Assembly: GCA_038245195.1 (NCBI GenBank)
Contig: JBBRSU010000002.1
Span: 35,091-99,090, forward strand
Length of the DNA: 64,000 nucleotides
Direction of reading: 5' to 3'
DNA from: Candidatus Saccharimonadales bacterium
GTDB taxonomy: Bacteria > Patescibacteriota > Saccharimonadia > Saccharimonadales > UBA10212
Both the position numbers and the translations under genes were made by a program. The notes under the pieces are model-generated. The model was not told the origin of the DNA. It made no database searches and was given only the letters and a program-made list of their open reading frames with translations. Every line of letters begins with the position of its first letter. Positions within the stretch are counted from its first letter, which is position 1. Of this stretch, positions 2,903-58,273 are shown piece after piece.

Positions 2903-3111
2903 TATTTATTGTCCAACTTTCTTATTGCATTTTCCATGATGCTTGAATCTGTGTAACCCTTTCGCTTATAGCCAACATGCTTTACAGCTAGACCGCCTAG
3001 ATCAAGTGAGGCGGCCACCGACAGGGCGTCTCTGCCACTTATTTCAATTATTAATTCGCTCAGGCTGTTGTTGGGTATAATATTCACGATCTCACCCTTT
3101 TTTAAGTCCAC
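2902..3111 (-). CDS. Hypothetical 69-aa protein exactly filling the rpsG-fusA gap
   Basis: The GTG start at 3111 directly abuts the rpsG stop (3112-3114). Its TAA stop shares one base with the fusA ATG (TAATG). Amino-acid composition is not low-complexity and I recognise no family. Confidence 0.5.
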
Positions 3112-11613: not shown

Positions 11614-12243
11614 TTAGGCCGTTTTGGGAACCGATTGAGCCAGCTTTCGGCTATCAATTACTTTATCGACGAGGCCGTATTTTTCGGCCTCTTGGGCGCT
11701 CATCCAATAGTCTCTATCGACATCTGACTCTACTTTGGATAGTTTTTGGCCGGTGTTTCTGGCCAAAATCTCGTTCAATAGTTTCTTTAGGCGAATACCT
11801 TCTCGTAAATCAATCTCTAGATCGGTTATTTTTGAGCGTTGGCTACCACTGCTGGGCTGATGAATCATGACGGTGGCATGAGGTAAGATTAATCTTTTCC
11901 CTTTCGTGCCCGAACTAAGCAGAAAAGCTGCGGCACTGGCTTGTACGCCGATACCAACTGTTTGGATGTCGGGTTTAACAAACTGCATAGTGTCATAAAT
12001 TGCAAAAGCATCATAAACACTTCCACCTGGACTGTTTATATAAAAAATGATGTCCTTGTTGGGGTCTTGATTTTCTAAAAACAGCATTTGGGCCACCACT
12101 AAGTTGGCGGTATGCTCATTAACATCGTCGCCTAGGAATATAATCCGGTCTTTGAGCAAACGGCTAAATATATCGTAGGCCCGTTCCATGCGACCTTCGG
12201 TTTCAATAACAGTTGGTACTAAAGTTTGAGATTTTCTATCCAT
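11614..12243 (-). CDS. clpP: ATP-dependent Clp protease proteolytic subunit
   Basis: 209 aa. N-terminal VPTVIE...[19 protein letters not shown]. Ser (GVQASAAAF), His (IMIHQPSSG) and Asp ([10 protein letters not shown]) triad contexts are retained. Confidence 0.95.
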
Positions 12244-12252
12244 GTAGCCCCA

Positions 12253-12281
12253 ATTATACGCATCAAATTGGCACTCGTCAA
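12253..12281 (-). promoter_or_regulatory. clpP promoter: TTGACG-17-TATAAT, with the -10 ending 9 nt before the ATG
   Basis: Minus-strand read: TTAGCACTCTGGGTTGACGAGTGCCAATTTGATGCGTATAATTGGGGCTACATG. The hexamers are near-consensus and the spacer is optimal. The -35 lies inside the CIRCE-like repeat. Confidence 0.6.
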
Positions 12282-12294
12282 CCCAGAGTGCTAA
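12268..12294. promoter_or_regulatory. CIRCE-like inverted repeat (HrcA-type operator) upstream of clpP
   Basis: The plus strand reads TTgGCACTC-N9-GAGTGCTAA against the consensus TTAGCACTC-N9-GAGTGCTAA, so 17 of 18 arm positions match. It overlaps the tig stop codon and the clpP -35. Confidence 0.65.
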
Positions 12295-13571
12295 TTTTTG
12301 GTGGCGTAGTCGATAAGTTTGGCCAGGGTTTTTTCGGTAAGTAAACGTGATTGGATGTCTCTTTGATTATCAGGTTTATCTAGTTCACTTTGCATCTGGG
12401 GGTCTTGGTATTGGCCTTTTAGGAGTTGCATTCTAAGCTCTATTTCCTCAGGGGTAACCACCAAGCCTTCTTTACTAGCAATCTCGCTGAGTATTAGGCC
12501 AACTTTTACTCGCTCAAGCGCTTCTGGGTAGTGTCTTTTACGATGCTCGGCCTCATTAATCCCCTCTGAATCCAGATGTTCTTGCCAGGTTTCTCCGCGG
12601 TAAGCCAGGTTTTGCTTTTCTTGTTCCTCAAGGTGCAAGTTTTCTTCTTGAACTAAGCTTTCGGGTACTTCAATCTCAGTTTGTGCGGCAATTTTCCTGA
12701 CGATTTCGTTTTGGTAATCAATTTTGGCCTGATTCTGTTTCTCGACCAATAGCTGCTTTTTAATGTCAGTCTTGAGCTCAGCCAGGCTCTTAAAAGGGCC
12801 GCTTTTACTGGCGAGCTCATCATCAGCTTTGGGCTCCTTCAACTCGGTAACCTTGTTAACATCAACCTTAAAGCTAACTTTTTTACTCTGAAGAACGGCT
12901 ACACCGTAATTTTTGGGAAAGGTAATTTCGAACTGCTTAGTCTCTCCGGGCTTTAATCCAATCAAGTTTTCTTCGAAACCGGGTATGAAGCTTTTACTAC
13001 CAAGAACTAGTGGGTAGTCTTTGCCATCAGCACCACCAACTGGTTGGCCATTTTCATCCGAACCAACAAAATTAATGATTAGTTCATCGCCGGCTTTGGC
13101 GGCTCGTTCCACCTCAGCTCGCTCGGCCAACCTCGTTTGAAGCGACCTAATTACCCCGTTGATGTCAGCAGTAGTGACTTCTGGCTTCTTCATAGCAACT
13201 TTAATAGCTTTATAGTTAGGTAATTTAACCGGTCCCAAGATTTCAGTTTCGGCCTCAAATTCCATATTGGTATATGGCACAAATTTTTTGAGTTGAACGT
13301 TTGGTGTGGAAATTGGTCGGGCTTGTTCTTGGTCGATGGCTCGCCGATATAGCTCGTTTAAGGCATGCTCCATAAACTCGTCTAATAAGGCCTGGTGGCT
13401 AATATTTTGTTCGACTAAGTGAGCTGGAGCTTTGCCGGCCCGGAACCCTGGAACTTTAACTGTCTTAAAATGGCTGAGTACATGTTTTCGGATTGGCTCT
13501 AAGTCGCTGGCATCAGCCACCACTTTAATCACAATCTTAGTAGGGGTTTTATCTTCTCTAATTACTCGCAT
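12291..13571 (-). CDS. tig: Trigger factor
   Basis: 426 aa. It has the N-terminal ribosome-binding GFRxGKAP motif ([14 protein letters not shown]), a central FKBP-like domain and a C-terminal arm domain. The tig-clpP order is conserved. Confidence 0.93.
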
Positions 13572-15715: not shown

Positions 15716-16912
15716 TTAGTTAGATAGATTAGTTATGGCTTCAGCGAAGGCCGCTTCTTTAAGTGGCACTTTATCTTTTTGTGAGCGCTCAAAAACTTTG
15801 GCTGTGGCATCGACTAAGTATTTTTCTAGTTGCTGGTTAACCTTGTCTTCGATCCAGTGCTCACCTTTTTTATTTTGGTCCCATTCTAGGTAGCTGACTA
15901 TCACACCACCGGCGTTAGCAAGGATATCAGGGATGTCCGTAATGTTTTGTTTGTCCAAACTTTCGTAGGCCGAATATGTGACAGGCCCGTTGGCTAACTC
16001 CAAAATAATCTTTGATTTTATCTTGCTGACGTTAGTCTCATCTACGGCATTTTCTAAAGCTGCCAGAACTAAAACGTCAACATCTAAAGCTAGTAATCCG
16101 TTGTTATCGACCTTTTGGCCGGATTTGTAATCAGCCAGTTTGCCACCTTGCTTCTTATATTCATCCAGCGCACTTGCTGACAGGCCGGCAGGTTCATAGA
16201 TCCCACCGCTAGAATCAGTGGCGGATACTAATTTCCAGTTTGGATGTTCCTTTTCGGCTATCAAAGCAAAGTAAGAGCCCACATTGCCCCAACCTTGCAC
16301 CGCATAAGTTACTCCTTCTAAAATGCTTGACTTGTTAAGTATTTCTCTGAGGACGATTACCCCACCGCGACCAGTGGCGGCGTCACGGCCCAAACTGCCG
16401 CCATTACCTATACTTTTGCCAGTAAAGCTGGCCTTGGTCTTGTCGCCGCTTAAGTTTTGGTATTCGTCTGTCATCCAATCGATTATCTGGGCGTTGGTGT
16501 TAACGTCCGGCGCCGGCACGTCTTTGTCCGGGCCGATATGGTCTTTTAGCCCCCTAACGTACTTACGGGAAAGCTCCTCTAAAGCTTCTTTAGAAAGTTG
16601 GCGGGGGTCTACAGCTATGCCACCCTTGCCTCCGCCCATTGGGATGCCAACGACGGCTGTTTTAAAACTCATTAATGTTGCCAGGGCTCTAACTTCGTCA
16701 TAATCAACCTGCGGATGAAAGCGGATGCCGCCTTTATACGGGCCGCGCTTATTACTATGCTGGACGCGGTAAGCGTCGTATTTACTGCCGTCTGTCAGCT
16801 CTATTTCAAAATTATGCTCGGCATCGGTTTTAATAAGTTCTTCGATTTGCTCATCACTTAAGCCCATTTTTTTGCCGGCTTGCCGAATCAATTTACGCGC
16901 CGTATCTAACAT
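15716..16912 (-). CDS. gdhA: Glu/Leu/Phe/Val-family (glutamate) dehydrogenase
   Basis: Motifs present: GPYKGGIRFHP, the GGGKGG catalytic-Lys region, and the Rossmann segment VQGWGNVG. I trimmed the start to ATG 16912, which is preceded by AGAGGGA. The longer track ORF (to 16984) overlaps the tRNA-Leu gene. Confidence 0.93.
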   Translation of the reverse strand: MLDTARKLIRQAGKKMGLSDEQIEELIKTDAEHNFEIELTDGSKYDAYRVQHSNKRGPYKGGIRFHPQVDYDEVRALATLMSFKTAVVGIPMGGGKGGIAVDPRQLSKEALEELSRKYVRGLKDHIGPDKDVPAPDVNTNAQIIDWMTDEYQNLSGDKTKASFTGKSIGNGGSLGRDAATGRGGVIVLREILNKSSILEGVTYAVQGWGNVGSYFALIAEKEHPNWKLVSATDSSGGIYEPAGLSASALDEYKKQGGKLADYKSGQKVDNNGLLALDVDVLVLAALENAVDETNVSKIKSKIILELANGPVTYSAYESLDKQNITDIPDILANAGGVIVSYLEWDQNKKGEHWIEDKVNQQLEKYLVDATAKVFERSQKDKVPLKEAAFAEAITNLSN

Positions 16913-16942
16913 TATCCCTCTTTCTTTGTTACTAACTTCTTC

Positions 16943-17027
16943 TGGTGGGGATGAAAGGACTTGAACCTTCACGTCTTGCGACACCAGGTCCTAAACCTGG
17001 CGTGTCTACCAATTCCACCACATCCCC
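16943..17027 (-). tRNA. tRNA-Leu (anticodon UAG), type II with a long variable arm and encoded CCA
   Basis: Minus-strand sequence: GGGGATGTGGTGGAATTGGTAGACACGCCAGGTTTAGGACCTGGTGTCGCAAGACGTGAAGGTTCAAGTCCTTTCATCCCCACCA. It has a 7-bp acceptor stem and the anticodon stem-loop CCAGG-TTTAGGA-CCTGG, with a GTC-GCAA-GAC variable arm and a T-loop TTCAAGT. Confidence 0.92.
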
Positions 17028-28450: not shown

Positions 28451-30943
28451 CTACTCTAGGGCGGCGGCGTATATTAGCTCAACCACTTGCTGTTTACCGC
28501 GTTTGGCGTTGACAGTAACAACATCGCCAGTATGATAATTATCTTCTAGCAGGCCGCCGGCAATGGCATCTTCTAGAGTTTCTTGGAGTAATCGTCGCAT
28601 TGGTCGGGCTCCGTTAAGTGCATCATAACCGCTTTCTAAGAGGAATTGCTTAGCCTTAGGACTAACTTGTAAACCGATGCCTTTTTTTACTAAACGACTC
28701 CGTAGGTCCTCTAACTGAATATCTAAAATCTCTAAAGCATCTTTTCGAGTTAAGGCTCTAAAGACGATTACCTTATCGATTCGATTCAGCAGCTCCGGAC
28801 GCATCATCTTTTTAAGCTCATCCAAAACTTTGGTTTTGTTGGCTTCATGTAGCTCATCCAGATTATCAAAGTCGGCTGATTTTTGGGCCGAAAATCCGAA
28901 GCTAGCCTCTTTTTGAAGTTTTTCGGCACCAATATTACTGGTCATGATGATTATAGTGTTGGTAAAGTCGATTTTCCGACCTTTGGCATCACTCAATACA
29001 CCATCCTCCAAAATTTGAAGTAACATATTAAACACATCGGGGTGGGCTTTTTCAATTTCGTCAAATAGCACTACGCTGTAAGGCTGACGCCGGATACGGT
29101 CAGTTAACTGGCCAGGGTCATCGTAGCCCACATAGCCGGCCGGTGCACCGATCAGCCGTGCCACCGTATGATGCTCACCAAATTCACTCATATCAATTTT
29201 GACCAGAGCTTCTTCACTGCCAAAGAACTCTCTGGCCAGTACTCGCCCCAGCTCGGTTTTACCCACGCCAGTTGGACCCATAAAAATGAAGGAACCGATT
29301 GGTCGTTTTTCGCTAGAGATGCCCGAACGAGACCGCCGGACGGCTTTAGCAACGGTTTCCACAGCCTCTTCTTGGCCGATAATATACTTGCCAAGGTTCT
29401 TTTCCAGCCCCACAAGATACTTGGCTTCCGAGCGAATCACTTTGGTAACTGGAACGCCGGTAATCCTAGCTACCGTCTCGGCCATATCATCAGTTGTTAA
29501 CTTTATTGGCTTGCCAGTTCGGCTGGTAGCCTCTAACTGTTTAATCCGCTCGCCTAACTGAGAAGCTTTTTGTTTCTCACGGGCGGCTTTTTCATAATCT
29601 TCGGCGTCAACTGCATCATCAATCCGTGAATTTATTAGTTTTAACTCTTTTTGCAATTGTCGTAACTCCGGTGGGGTCTTACCCTTATTAACGCGTAAGT
29701 AAGCCGAGGTTTCATCTAGTAGGTCGATAGCTTTATCAGGCATGTAGCGATCGTTAATGTATCGCCTGGCAAATTGGACAGTGTCTTCTAGAACTTCGTC
29801 GCTAACCTTAACCCCGTGGAAATCTTCATAATGCTTGCGAAGCCCCTTTAGAATGGCCAGAGTTTCACTGGGTGTGGTTTCTGGCACTTTAACCGGCTGG
29901 AAACGTCGCTCTAAAGCGGCGTCTTTTTCGATATACCGGGTATATTCATCGGTTGTAGTCGCCCCAATCATTTGGATTTTACCGCGGGCTAGACTAGGTT
30001 TTAGAATATTTCCGGCGTCCATGGAGCCCTCCGCCGCTCCGGCACCAACAATCAAATGTAGCTCATCGATAAACACAATCGCATTTTTGTCCTGTTCTAA
30101 CTCAGCAATCACTTTTTTGAGTCGCTCTTCAAACTCACCGCGATACTTGGTTCCAGCTATCATGCCGGCCAAATCTAGAGTAACGAGGCGCTTTTCCATC
30201 AAACTATCCGGTACATCTTCGTTCACAATTCTTTGAGCTAGGCCTTCAACGATTGCGGTTTTACCAACGCCTGGTTCGCCAATCAGAACTGGATTGTTTT
30301 TGTTACGCCGATTTAGGATGGTAATAACTCGCTTGATTTGTGGTTCTCGCCCAACGACTGGGTCTAACTTCTTTTCTCGAGCTAATTTTGTCAAATCTGT
30401 GCCAAAAAAATCTAAGGCACTCTTTTTGCCACTTTTTCCTCGCCGGCGACTATTGCCGTCAGTTTCGTCGGTTTCGTATTGTTGTTTTTGCAGAAACTGC
30501 TCAACTTCGCCACTTAATCGATCAATATCAACGCTCATGTCACGCAGTAATTGTGTGGCCCGAGCGTTTTTTTGGCTAAGAATGCTGTAAAGAACATGTT
30601 CAGTGCCACAATAGTCTTGGTTGAACTCTTGGGCAATTTCCCAAGCCATCTTAAGAGTCAGTTTGGCGGTTTCGGATAAACCTTTGCCACCCATGTTAAT
30701 AACTAGAGTCTTCGGGGTTAAATTCAGTGCTAATCGAGCTCGTTCGAGAGTTACACTAGCCCCATCAAGTATTTTGGCGGCCATTGAGCCTTCTTGAGCT
30801 AAGACTCCCAGTAATAAATGCTCCGTCCCGATATAGGCACTGCCGCTAGCCCTAGCGATGGCATCGGCGTGCCGTAAACTATGGAGCGCATTGTTAGTTA
30901 AATGGCTCAAAAATTCTTGAAAATCAGGTGAATTTGGAATCAT
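28451..30943 (-). CDS. clpC: ATP-dependent Clp protease ATP-binding subunit ClpC
   Basis: 830 aa. It has two Clp_N repeats, two AAA+ modules (GEPGVGKTA and GPTGVGKTE) and a UVR-like linker between them. Confidence 0.95.
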
Positions 30944-31010: not shown

Positions 31011-31041
31011 ATGATACCACGAATTAGCACTCGCGTGTCAA
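31011..31041 (-). promoter_or_regulatory. Candidate clpC promoter (TTGACA-19-TATCAT, with an extended -10 TGGTATCAT)
   Basis: Minus-strand read: TTGGCACTCTTGACACGCGAGTGCTAATTCGTGGTATCAT. The -35 sits in the CIRCE spacer. The spacer length is suboptimal, but a TGn extension is present. Confidence 0.4.
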
Positions 31042-31050
31042 GAGTGCCAA
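31024..31050. promoter_or_regulatory. CIRCE-like inverted repeat (HrcA-type operator) upstream of clpC
   Basis: The plus strand reads TTAGCACTC-N9-GAGTGCcAA, so 17 of 18 arm positions match the consensus. It lies ~80-105 nt upstream of the clpC ATG, just downstream of the nusA stop. Confidence 0.65.
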
Positions 31051-31064
31051 TTTAGCTGGTTATT

Positions 31065-32270
31065 CTACTCTTTTGGTTCGGTACTGTGCTCTTCGATAGC
31101 TTCGAGCAGGGAGCTTTCTAGCTCACTTTTTCGTTTTAGCTTTTGGACTACTGGCTTGGATTCTACACTAATCGGTTCAGTCACTTCTGGTTCAATCTCG
31201 GCATTAACCTCAGGTTCTGACTGCGGACTACCGGCAGGTTTGTTAGGTTCGACATCCAGCTCAAAACCACTCAATTTACCCGCCAAACGGACATTTTGAC
31301 CCGATTTACCAATCGCAATACTTAATTGATCTTCTGGAACTATTACAGTTGCCTTTCCGTCCTTTAGCACGACCTTTGTAACATTGGCTGGTTTCATAGC
31401 GTTAGCCACAAAAGTGGCGGCGTCAGCGTCCCAAACTACAATATCAATCATTTCTTGATTACCGATTTCATCACGTACAGCATTAATTCGAGTACCGTGT
31501 CCGCCGACAAAGGTTCCAACCGGATCTACACCTTGGACATTGGAAGCCACAGCAATCTTGGACCTCACACCTGGCTCCCTAGCAACTTCTTTAATTTCGA
31601 CTGCCTTATTTTCCATTTCTGGTACTTCAGATTGGAACAATAATTCAATGAATTCCTTGGAGCCACGACTAACGATTAGTTGGGGTCCGCGGAAACCCTT
31701 TTCGACATCTTTTAGGTATAGTTTTAGGCGTTGGCCGGGATAATAGCGCTCACCCTGAATCTGTTCACTAACCGGCAAAATACCTTGGGCTCGGCCTAGT
31801 TCAACCCTGACCATTCGGCCTTCAACCCGGGTTACAACACCGTTAACTAATCCGCCAATCTTATCCTCATATTCGGCTAGCACAATTTCCCGCTCAGCTT
31901 CGCGCAAACGCTGTAGAATAACTTGCTTAGCAGTTTGAGCCGCCACTCGGCCAAAATCTTTAACCGGTTGTTCAAGCTCAACGGTTTCACCGACTTTGGC
32001 ATTTTTTCGCATAACTTGAGCCTGGGCTAAGCTAATTTGAGTGTGCTCGTTTTCAACTTCATCGACTACTTCCTTGGTAACAAAAGCCGTGACATCACCA
32101 GTATTTAAATTCATGGTGATGCGAACATCTTGCTCGCGATCGCCATAGTCACGCCGCCAAGCGGCCGCTAGGGCCTGTTGGACTACATCCTGAACTTGAT
32201 CTTCTGGTAAGTTCTTCTCCTCAGCTATTACCTTAATAGCCTGAGCTAATTGTTTAAAATCCATTTCCAT
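31065..32270 (-). CDS. nusA: Transcription termination/antitermination factor NusA
   Basis: 401 aa with an N-terminal RNAP-binding domain, S1 and two KH domains (GKSGQNVRLA), followed by an acidic Pro/Glu-rich tail. Confidence 0.95.
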   Translation of the reverse strand: MEMDFKQLAQAIKVIAEEKNLPEDQVQDVVQQALAAAWRRDYGDREQDVRITMNLNTGDVTAFVTKEVVDEVENEHTQISLAQAQVMRKNAKVGETVELEQPVKDFGRVAAQTAKQVILQRLREAEREIVLAEYEDKIGGLVNGVVTRVEGRMVRVELGRAQGILPVSEQIQGERYYPGQRLKLYLKDVEKGFRGPQLIVSRGSKEFIELLFQSEVPEMENKAVEIKEVAREPGVRSKIAVASNVQGVDPVGTFVGGHGTRINAVRDEIGNQEMIDIVVWDADAATFVANAMKPANVTKVVLKDGKATVIVPEDQLSIAIGKSGQNVRLAGKLSGFELDVEPNKPAGSPQSEPEVNAEIEPEVTEPISVESKPVVQKLKRKSELESSLLEAIEEHSTEPKE

Positions 32271-55825: not shown

Positions 55826-56470
55826 TTAGGTCGTACCGGTTTCTTCGGCAATTCGCTCTAGCACTTTATAGGCGTGTTCCGGATTGGTAGAGTTTTGGAT
55901 ATAACCGCCGACATTAAGCACATCAACTCCACCACCAGCCAAACGCGAGGCGTTCTGATCGTTTACTCCACCGTCCCAACCAATTTCAATCGAGGGCTTG
56001 TGATGTTTAAGTATCTGAGCATGGTTAAGTAAACCAAGGTTAGCATGGCCGCCGAACTTACCTAAATCTCCGCTAAATATCAAAACATGGTCAATCCTAG
56101 GTAGTGCCGAGATAATTGATTCGATAGGAGTTTTTGGTAAAACCGCCACGCCAATTTTAACCCCCTGCCGGTGGCATATTTCAGCAAACGAAGCAAAGTT
56201 ACCATCGGCTTCAGCGTGGACGATAATCATATTAGGTTTGTGCTGTAAAATAATGTCGACTGCCGAATCAGGCCGATGGAACATTAAATGAAAGTCAGCT
56301 AACACACCAACTGGCCACCATGCATCATCGGGTTTTATGGTTTGGGTTTGGGCAAATCGGCCATCTGTTAAGTCAATTTGAATCCGCTTTGCAAACTGAC
56401 CAACCTTTTCCATTTGGCTATGATACTGCTGGGTAGTTTCGGCCAAAATCGAGGGGCTGACAATGGCCAT
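55826..56470 (-). CDS. rpe: Ribulose-phosphate 3-epimerase family protein (divergent)
   Basis: 214 aa and colinear with RPE: SPSILA, IDLTDG, FHLM, KFGG, WDGGV. The first His of the H-x-D motif is Gln. Confidence 0.75.
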   Translation of the reverse strand: MAIVSPSILAETTQQYHSQMEKVGQFAKRIQIDLTDGRFAQTQTIKPDDAWWPVGVLADFHLMFHRPDSAVDIILQHKPNMIIVHAEADGNFASFAEICHRQGVKIGVAVLPKTPIESIISALPRIDHVLIFSGDLGKFGGHANLGLLNHAQILKHHKPSIEIGWDGGVNDQNASRLAGGGVDVLNVGGYIQNSTNPEHAYKVLERIAEETGTT

Positions 56471-56967
56471 TAATGTTCCAGTCTGTCGAGCTTATCAATC
56501 CGCCGAACATGTCGCGATTCTTCGCTAAATGGGGTCTCTAACCAAATTTTAATTACTTGTTTCATGTCATTTAGAGAAACGAACCTGGCCGCTAGACTCA
56601 ACATATTGGCGTTATTATGTTGGCGGCTGAGTCTAACTATTTCATAAGGACTGCTGCTAACTCGCCCGTTGGCATCGATAATCCGTCCAACTACGGCCGG
56701 GCCATAAAATACTGCACACCTCACACCTTTAAAGCGATTAGCTGCCATGGCTTCGCCTTGCCCACTGCCACCCAAAATTATACCCATATCAGCACTGCTC
56801 TCCGATACCGACTGTGCAGCTTTAAAAATAAAATCTGGATAATCATCGCTAAGATTTAGAGTCTCTGGCCCATAATTACTACACTCATGGCCCAGCTCCT
56901 CTAAATACAGCTGCAGATCTTTCAGCTGTTCATAGCCGGTATGGTCGGTTGCTAGAGCAATTTTCAT
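56470..56967 (-). CDS. rpiB: Ribose-5-phosphate isomerase B
   Basis: MKIALATDHTGYE...GILGGSGQGEAMAANRFKGVRCA, which is the RpiB/LacAB family. I trimmed the start to ATG 56967. The longer track ORF overlaps the gap 3' end. Confidence 0.9.
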   Translation of the reverse strand: MKIALATDHTGYEQLKDLQLYLEELGHECSNYGPETLNLSDDYPDFIFKAAQSVSESSADMGIILGGSGQGEAMAANRFKGVRCAVFYGPAVVGRIIDANGRVSSSPYEIVRLSRQHNNANMLSLAARFVSLNDMKQVIKIWLETPFSEESRHVRRIDKLDRLEH

Positions 56968-56980
56968 ATTAATACTTTCG

Positions 56981-58273
56981 CTAAAAGTTGTGGGCCTGAG
57001 TTGAGCCACTAGATGTTGGGTAAATCGCCGGCGGGTTATCGCTACGGGTGTGAGCACCTTCATCTAAAGGCTCGGTAGCTGTTGTTCCCTCAGCTGGTGA
57101 ATGGACTTCAGTCGATAAGTGCGGTTGTTCAACAACTGCACCAACTGGTGGTGGTAAGAAATCTCCCACTTTTGGCGAGCTTAAAAGCTCTTCGGGCTCC
57201 GGAAGTTCTTGTTTAGGTTTATCGTCGGTTTCCAGCACAACATCATTGCCACCATTTAATATCCGACCGGTATCGGCCGTTAACTCAACCAAACGGTTTG
57301 AATAACCCCACTCGTTGTCATACCAAGCCACTACTTTCAATAAATTGCCGCCGACAACATTAGTTAGGCCCAAATCCACAATCGCCGAGTGGCTATTGCC
57401 AATAAAATCAGTGCTAACTAGTTCCTCTTCGGTCACGTCCAAAATACCCTGATAAAACGGATTCTGTGAAGCTTTTTTGAAAGCGTCGTTGACTTCTTCA
57501 ACTGTCACCGCGCGCTTAGTGACAATTACGAAATCGGCCAATGATACGACTGGGGTCGGTACACGAACTTCAAAACCACCAAAAATCCCTTTGAGTGATG
57601 GTAGGGCTTTAGCTGCGGCTATCGATGCACCGGTGGTAGTCGGGACGATATTTTCAGCGGCCGCTCGGCCATCACGCAGAGCTTTACCTCCCGGAGCGTC
57701 TTGTAATTTCTGACTGGCTGTATAGCTATGGATGGTTGTCATCATCAGCTTCTCGATACCAAAAGTGTTTTGAATAACTGCCGCTACCGGTGTTATACAG
57801 TTAGTAGTACAGCTGGCATTGCTAATGATATCAATGCCGTCCTTAAGCTTATCTTCATTTACGCCCAGCACGATTGTGTCGGCCGAATCAGCATTATCGC
57901 CTTTGGCGGGGGCACTAATAATAACTCGTTTGGCACCAGCCGTTATATGAGCCCGGGCTTTATCAGGATCCACAAAAAACCCAGTCGATTCTATAACTAC
58001 ATCTATTGCCATATCCTTCCATGGCAAATTAGCCGGGTCTTTTTCGGCTAGAACTTTGATTGGTTGGCCGTTAACGATTAGGTTGTGCTCGTCATAAGTA
58101 ACTTCGTGCTGATAAGCCCCGTAAGCACTATCGTGCTTTAGTAAATAAGCCAGAGTTTTTGTATCAGTTAAGTCGTTAAGCGCCACAACTTCTAGATCAG
58201 GTCGCTGAAAGGCAATCTTAAAAGCATTACGCCCAATCCGGCCAAACCCATTAATCGCAATCTTTGTCTTCAT
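56981..58273 (-). CDS. gap: Glyceraldehyde-3-phosphate dehydrogenase with a ~91-aa Pro/Glu-rich C-terminal extension
   Basis: 430 aa: INGFGRIGR, SNASCTTNC, WYDNEWGYSNRLVEL, then a non-homologous tail to the stop at 56981. Confidence 0.95.
   Translation of the reverse strand: MKTKIAINGFGRIGRNAFKIAFQRPDLEVVALNDLTDTKTLAYLLKHDSAYGAYQHEVTYDEHNLIVNGQPIKVLAEKDPANLPWKDMAIDVVIESTGFFVDPDKARAHITAGAKRVIISAPAKGDNADSADTIVLGVNEDKLKDGIDIISNASCTTNCITPVAAVIQNTFGIEKLMMTTIHSYTASQKLQDAPGGKALRDGRAAAENIVPTTTGASIAAAKALPSLKGIFGGFEVRVPTPVVSLADFVIVTKRAVTVEEVNDAFKKASQNPFYQGILDVTEEELVSTDFIGNSHSAIVDLGLTNVVGGNLLKVVAWYDNEWGYSNRLVELTADTGRILNGGNDVVLETDDKPKQELPEPEELLSSPKVGDFLPPPVGAVVEQPHLSTEVHSPAEGTTATEPLDEGAHTRSDNPPAIYPTSSGSTQAHNF

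Follow-up and report, generated by a model that had tools for sequence, protein, structure and literature searches.

The repressor HrcA and its operator CIRCE are classically restricted to the groE and dnaK operons; the one constant member of the regulon is said to be groESL (PMC545781). In Bacillus subtilis, the CIRCE elements of dnaK and groE follow the consensus TTAGCACTC-N9-GAGTGCTAA (Zuber & Schumann 1994; Mogk et al. 1997). The HrcA regulon of Mycoplasma pneumoniae and other mollicutes comprises dnaK, dnaJ, clpB, groESL, lon, pepA and pip; there, a CIRCE element occupies the short gap between tig and lon, with transcription of lon attributed to the tig promoter (PMC7737663). As cited in later papers, clpP of Streptococcus salivarius is under the dual control of CtsR and HrcA (Chastanet & Msadek 2003, J Bacteriol 185:683; via PMC3842655 and PMC6305308), and clpL of Lactobacillus gasseri is a potential member of the HrcA regulon (Suokko et al. 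2008; via PMC3192767 and PMC3231925). Transcriptional regulation is still largely uncharted in Saccharibacteria and in the candidate phyla radiation (CPR), and the literature searched contained no paper linking HrcA to either of them.

Here we analysed a 64-kb stretch of saccharibacterial DNA (the window; G+C content 44.7%), in which a CIRCE element lies between tig and clpP. From the sequence evidence, we estimate a probability of about 0.8 that this repeat is a functional HrcA operator repressing clpP. The features of the locus are as follows.

12268 to 12294, minus strand: CIRCE operator sequence with one mismatch; its distal arm holds the tig stop codon, and it is kept in relatives
12276 to 12281, minus strand: clpP -35 hexamer TTGACG, part of an 11/12 promoter match
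12253 to 12258, minus strand: clpP -10 hexamer TATAAT, 17 nt past the -35 and ending 9 nt before the clpP ATG
11614 to 12243, minus strand: clpP (NF001368, 290 bits, cut-off 249), with its ATG at 12243
12291 to 13571, minus strand: tig (trigger factor), upstream of clpP, with its 3' end inside the CIRCE

The plus-strand sequence from 12268 to 12294 is TTGGCACTCGTCAACCCAGAGTGCTAA, or TTAGCACTC-TGGGTTGAC-GAGTGCCAA when written on the clpP strand, and it differs from the consensus at one position, as the first-pass annotation had reported. We found two matches with at most three mismatches in the window, compared with 0.01 expected from 100 dinucleotide shuffles. The mismatch counts are bimodal: both sites have one mismatch, the next best has six, which is the chance level, and a search relaxed to six mismatches returned no CIRCE with two to five mismatches in the window.

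An independent scan for the sigma-70 consensus recovered the promoter TTGACG-17-TATAAT on the minus strand (12281 to 12253). This agrees with the earlier claim that the -35 straddles the spacer and the proximal arm of the repeat, since TTGAC fills positions 5-9 of the CIRCE spacer and the final G of the hexamer opens the proximal arm. The element overlaps the promoter of a protein-quality-control gene, namely the -35 hexamer and promoter spacer of clpP. Because the -10 hexamer ends so close to the ATG, an mRNA started at this embedded promoter would be leaderless or nearly so. At the other end, the tig stop codon TAG (12291-12293) falls within the distal arm, and the gap between tig and clpP is 47 nt in total. 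A terminator scan returned no terminator between the two genes. An intrinsic terminator of tig, consisting of a GC-rich stem-loop and a U-tract, was also considered for this position and was rejected, as there was no terminator-like site and the fold had z = -1.7.

The conservation of the element was assessed in one genome per species, using a scan seeded with the ClpP protein and therefore unbiased as to the upstream DNA. The closest ClpP relatives came from Candidatus Saccharibacteria and Saccharimonadales MAGs, with 66-81% ClpP identity. The first-pass annotation had expected the repeat to recur upstream of clpP in related genomes, and this was borne out: CIRCE with at most three mismatches is present in 14 of the 18 saccharibacterial species, ending 20-191 nt upstream of the point where the ClpP match begins, and a fifteenth locus (L014) carries a site with four mismatches. 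It is missing from L012, L015 and the distant L054 (3/18 saccharibacterial loci), so the element is not universal in Saccharibacteria. None of the 62 loci from other phyla has a CIRCE at clpP; these loci contain only two CIRCEs in all, thousands of bases from clpP. The gene upstream of the clpP element is tig in some species and an unrelated gene elsewhere, indicating that CIRCE travels with clpP and not with tig. Across 15 sites, the information content is 1.96 and 1.72 bits per position in the two arms and 0.22-0.49 in the flanks and spacer, the arm values being somewhat inflated since the sites were chosen by motif match.

The embedded promoter is also kept. Every related clpP CIRCE with at most three mismatches has TTGACn in its spacer (TTGAAG in L008), in registers 1-5, 2-6, 3-7 or 5-9, together with a TAnnnT box 16-18 nt past this -35; the four-mismatch site of L014 is the exception. 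The distance between the -10 and the ClpP ATG is 6-10 nt in 12 of the 22 tabulated clpP sites, which are genomic and metagenomic and include the window (the others are L003, L004, L005, L007, L011, L018, L139, L151, L160, L179 and L180). No Shine-Dalgarno sequence was found at these 12 sites, and the combination suggests that their clpP mRNAs are leaderless. The clpP genes of the remaining species have leaders of 15-74 nt with GGAG-type sites.

These observations bear on the possibility that the CIRCE is real and serves mainly to stop transcription arriving from a tig promoter, while the TTGACG/TATAAT pair is unused. Such an arrangement would resemble lon of M. pneumoniae, for which transcription from the tig promoter is reported and which has a CIRCE just upstream (PMC7737663), and the window does contain a promoter-like site upstream of tig (13608 to 13580, 10/12) and no terminator after tig. 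However, the -35/-10 pair stays in register with CIRCE at the 21 related clpP sites, the L014 exception aside, including those behind unrelated upstream genes, and this register and the short distance to the ATG (at most 10 nt in 12/22 sites) are sensible only if transcription starts there. We consider it unlikely that the promoter is idle, and a block to read-through and occlusion of the promoter are in any case not mutually exclusive.

The second match in the window lies upstream of a Clp ATPase gene. Its features are as follows.

31024 to 31050, minus strand: second CIRCE with one mismatch, between nusA and clpC, the sole other CIRCE in the window
31036 to 31041, minus strand: clpC -35 hexamer TTGACA, within the spacer of the second CIRCE
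31011 to 31016, minus strand: clpC -10 hexamer TATCAT, an extended -10 (TGG before it), 19 nt past the -35 and 67 nt before the ATG
28451 to 30943, minus strand: ClpC-type double-AAA+ ATPase of 830 aa, with Clp_N repeats and a short middle domain
31065 to 32270, minus strand: nusA, located upstream of the second CIRCE

Written on the clpC strand, the element is TTGGCACTC-TTGACACGC-GAGTGCTAA, which places a perfect TTGACA inside its spacer. The spacing of 19 nt between -35 and -10 is suboptimal, and the promoter is absent from the output of the scan, which covered spacings of 16-18 nt; since that scan did not return the -10, the clpC promoter is the weaker evidence of the two. The 830-aa protein has an FGF tripeptide at residues 682-684, where a ClpP-docking loop is expected. 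ATPases of the ClpC, ClpA and ClpX types carry such a loop at this position. From its length, the loop motif and established knowledge of the family, the protein is most readily assigned as ClpC and not ClpB. Both CIRCE copies in 64 kb thus precede the two subunits of one protease.

We also scanned metagenomes with the pattern TTAGCACTCN{0,4}TTGACN{0,4}GAGTGC, which describes a CIRCE with embedded TTGAC. The scan yielded 120 loci, each having a 9-nt spacer; as it is motif-seeded, it tells which genes follow such operators and not how often, and frequencies are taken from the ClpP-seeded scan only. Ten metagenomic contigs have the order nusA-CIRCE-clpC(-hyp-radA), with 55-74% ClpC identity and the same gene order as in the window. 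CIRCE-clpP was found on six contigs flanked by tig, rpoB, hisS or radA, and one of the six ClpPs is named Candidatus Saccharibacteria.

The same scan recovered CIRCEs with TTGAC in the spacer before genes of other kinds, including clpB (L108, L137, L138, L182, L187), small heat-shock proteins of the hsp20 type (about 25 loci), RpoH-like sigma factors (L124, L126, L128, L152) and FmdB-type zinc-ribbon proteins (L097, L101, L136, L193). These contigs had no match to the window proteins, so an embedded -35 is probably not confined to Saccharibacteria.

Control by CtsR was considered as another candidate for the Clp genes. In agreement with the first-pass annotation, which had seen no CtsR-type repeat, the CtsR heptad operator RGTCAAANANRGTCAAA gave seven matches at three mismatches in the window compared with 7.9 expected, none of them near clpP or clpC. 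The gene ctsR is typically arranged as ctsR-mcsA-mcsB-clpC; here nusA is the gene upstream of clpC. CtsR, HspR, ClpX and Lon are all without an annotated gene in the related Southlakia epibionticum (PMC10633639 supplements). We rejected a class III (CtsR) regulon on account of the chance-level boxes, the upstream nusA and the missing CtsR annotation in Southlakia.

Two start-site questions were noted elsewhere in the window. A GAPDH-like ORF (56981-58273) encodes 430 aa and overlaps the called start of an rpiB-like ORF (56470-57063) by 83 nt. A typical GAPDH is about 95 aa shorter, so either this ORF has a C-terminal extension or the true rpiB start is the internal MKIALATDH. The gene for tRNA-Leu (16943-17027) overlaps the GTG start of the ORF called as glutamate dehydrogenase (15716-16984), whose true start is probably a downstream Met.

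The first-pass annotation had also expected further CIRCE copies in the genome. In addition to the copy at clpC, saccharibacterial contigs carry CIRCE before hrcA-grpE, dnaK and dnaJ. In the metagenome loci, CIRCE precedes short HrcA genes (217-245 aa) that have grpE and dnaK behind them, and it also precedes dnaK alone (often in tandem), dnaJ and groES-groEL. The hrcA and dnaK contigs were assigned to Saccharibacteria through synteny with Southlakia and through the names of exactly matching sequences; the homology of flanking genes on the hrcA, dnaK and groES contigs to the window and clpP loci gave no useful overlap.

The contig L146 has the order CIRCE-hrcA-grpE-lemA-TPM-CIRCE-CIRCE-dnaK. 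Its 236-aa HrcA matches PF01628 (8e-18) and PF03444, and the N-terminal winged helix aligns to HrcA of Thermotoga maritima (1STZ) with E = 1.7e-15. The DnaK encoded on this contig is identical to MBF1024482.1 from Candidatus Nanogingivalaceae, phylum Saccharimonadota. The DnaK of L155 is 98% the same as that of L146, and its contig continues with tsaE-tsaB-rny-sortase-eno, which is the order of SEML1_0710-0718 in S. epibionticum. L190 has the order 2xCIRCE-hrcA-grpE-dnaK-dnaJ, and its HrcA (232 aa) falls in the same 90%-identity cluster as MEI6169835.1 from Candidatus Saccharibacteria. Across L146, L178 and L190, the canonical HrcA targets with CIRCE in the lineage are hrcA-grpE, dnaK (with tandem elements) and dnaJ. 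CIRCE-groES was found only in a 'Patescibacteria group' MAG (L099) and in unassigned contigs, and could not be placed in Saccharibacteria; L092 has no recognisable synteny with Southlakia, and the named GroELs belong to the Patescibacteria group MAG or to Coprothermobacterota/Caldisericota.

Tandem CIRCE pairs, 18-19 nt apart, are located upstream of saccharibacterial dnaK and, in L190, upstream of hrcA (L146 at 2960-3031, L084, L144, L145, L155, L158, L163, L178, L190 and L198). At dnaK of L146, the first CIRCE covers the -35 of the promoter TTGACA-17-TATACT and the second begins 7 nt past the -10, so the lineage uses both operator positions. The hrcA start in L146 has the form TATAAT-6 nt-ATG, like that of clpP.

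A tblastn search with an approximate B. subtilis HrcA query against the window and all clpP loci gave a sole match, in a Latescibacterota locus, so hrcA is not near clpP. In S. epibionticum, SEML1_0720 is labelled merely 'transcriptional regulator' and is assigned to K03705, PF01628 and PF03444 (PMC10633639 supplements). It is located within hrcA-grpE-dnaK, and each of the three Tn-seq columns lists it as essential (ES); clpP and clpC are called NE (SEML1_0493 and SEML1_0512; PMC10633639, supplement 1). The gene neighbourhoods tig...clpP...rpoB and nusA-clpC-hyp-radA are common to Southlakia and the window (PMC10633639). An ES call for hrcA together with NE calls for clpP and clpC would fit a harmful effect of regulon de-repression, as a correlation only.

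The HrcA proteins of the lineage are truncated. Short HrcAs of 217-245 aa behind CIRCE are encoded in L146 (271-981), L190 (4378-5076), L194 (5148-5885), L096, L090 and others. Aligned to the 353-aa HrcA of L200 and to the approximate B. subtilis HrcA, they are without about 100 central residues. In the 1STZ structure described by Liu and colleagues in 2005, the missing region is said to correspond approximately to the inserted dimerising domain together with a portion of the GAF fold. With these residues absent, oligomerisation and DNA binding may differ from those of full-length HrcA. The 242-aa HrcA of Southlakia was parsed into just two 1stz domains, A1 and A3.

We also weighed whether the repeat acts on RNA, as a terminator, attenuator or stability hairpin on a tig-clpP transcript that would set the ratio of tig to clpP. 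The repeat overlaps the tig stop, can form a 9-bp RNA stem, and is followed by clpP with no other terminator-like site after tig. However, no U-tract follows the stem, the terminator scan was empty at the repeat, and the fold is unremarkable (z = -1.7; 10 of 200 shuffles fold as well). The exact CIRCE sequence is conserved and not mere pairing, the element stays with clpP where the upstream gene is not tig, and the same motif precedes clpC, hrcA and dnaK. In addition, the hairpin would lie outside the clpP mRNA if the embedded promoter is used. A role at the RNA level is thus very unlikely. That the palindrome is a chance or relic feature, or is bound by another regulator, with no HrcA-dependent function, hardly deserves weight: no hrcA turned up in the window or the clpP-flanking loci with the approximate tblastn query and the lineage HrcA is truncated, but 0.01 such sites are expected per window, the repeat is conserved in about 15 species and six metagenomic clpP contigs, the same sequence precedes hrcA itself and dnaK in saccharibacterial contigs, and the winged helix of their HrcA aligns with that of T. 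maritima (E = 1.7e-15).

Taken together, these data make it very probable that HrcA shuts off clpP and clpC by occluding their promoters. The clpP operator encloses the -35 and most of the promoter spacer, a geometry typical of the lineage. In unstressed cells, an HrcA dimer on the two CIRCE arms would cover the clpP -35 hexamer and the promoter spacer and keep RNA polymerase off the promoter, and it could block read-through from tig as well. Under stress, unfolded proteins would draw away the chaperones on which the activity of HrcA depends; the repressor would then leave the operator, and clpP would be transcribed as a leaderless or near-leaderless mRNA, probably from the embedded promoter. 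The stress signal is assumed for clpP by analogy with the GroE titration model of HrcA, reportedly put forward for B. subtilis by Mogk and colleagues in 1997. A second operator of the same design would control clpC. With operators at both genes, the whole ClpCP protease would join hrcA-grpE, dnaK and dnaJ in a single HrcA regulon. This reduced-genome lineage thus probably keeps the one Clp protease it has under the chaperone repressor HrcA, in line with the suggestion of the first-pass annotation that the protease belongs to an HrcA regulon, a suggestion supported by the CIRCE at clpC, the conservation of the element, the HrcA of the lineage and the chance-level CtsR boxes. More tentatively, the truncated HrcA may serve Saccharibacteria, and perhaps much of the CPR, as the single repressor of the cytosolic proteostasis machinery (DnaK, DnaJ, GrpE and ClpCP, the only Clp protease annotated) through operator-embedded and often leaderless promoters. 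If so, hrcA would be called essential in Southlakia because uncontrolled expression of ClpCP or of the chaperones is toxic.

The analysis yields a concrete candidate regulon (hrcA-grpE, dnaK, dnaJ, clpP and clpC) and a defined promoter architecture, with sigma-70-like -35 and -10 hexamers, the -35 in the operator, and frequent leaderless starts. Both can be used for promoter annotation, for reading transcriptomes of TM7x and Southlakia, and for designing inducible or repressible expression tools for these bacteria, which have only recently become tractable.

Compared with B. subtilis, the repeat has the same 9-N9-9 form and the repressor belongs to the same family (HrcA, winged helix plus PF01628). 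CIRCE precedes hrcA-grpE and dnaK in Saccharibacteria also, which would point to autoregulation. In contrast, the putative saccharibacterial targets include clpP and clpC, both of which belong to a separate CtsR regulon in Bacillus, and the saccharibacterial HrcA is about 100 residues shorter. The dnaK and groE operators of B. subtilis lie downstream of the -10 and the start site, whereas the -35 of saccharibacterial clpP is built into the operator spacer.

M. pneumoniae has a reduced genome as well, its HrcA is described as the specific regulator of chaperones together with an ATP-dependent protease, and the order tig-CIRCE-protease is very similar. Its protease is Lon, however, and not ClpP/ClpC, its phylum is unrelated, and lon reportedly uses the tig promoter, whereas a near-consensus promoter is embedded in the saccharibacterial clpP operator. 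Saccharibacteria would be the second independent reduced-genome lineage, after the mollicutes, with an ATP-dependent protease in the HrcA regulon.

As in S. salivarius, clpP itself appears to be an HrcA/CIRCE target, but CtsR is involved there, whereas the window has no CtsR box and the related Southlakia no annotated ctsR. In L. gasseri, the gene behind CIRCE likewise encodes a Clp-family ATPase; ClpL, however, is a stand-alone chaperone ATPase and not a partner of ClpP, in a Firmicute that also has CtsR. The first-pass annotation was fair in calling HrcA control of clpP unusual, but S. salivarius clpP and the tig-CIRCE-lon order of M. pneumoniae are precedents. HrcA control of proteases is therefore already known, and it would be new for Saccharibacteria and the CPR. 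What sets the present case apart is the combination of ClpC and ClpP as joint targets, a -35 inside the operator and a truncated HrcA, a result previously undescribed for the phylum but mechanistically expected.
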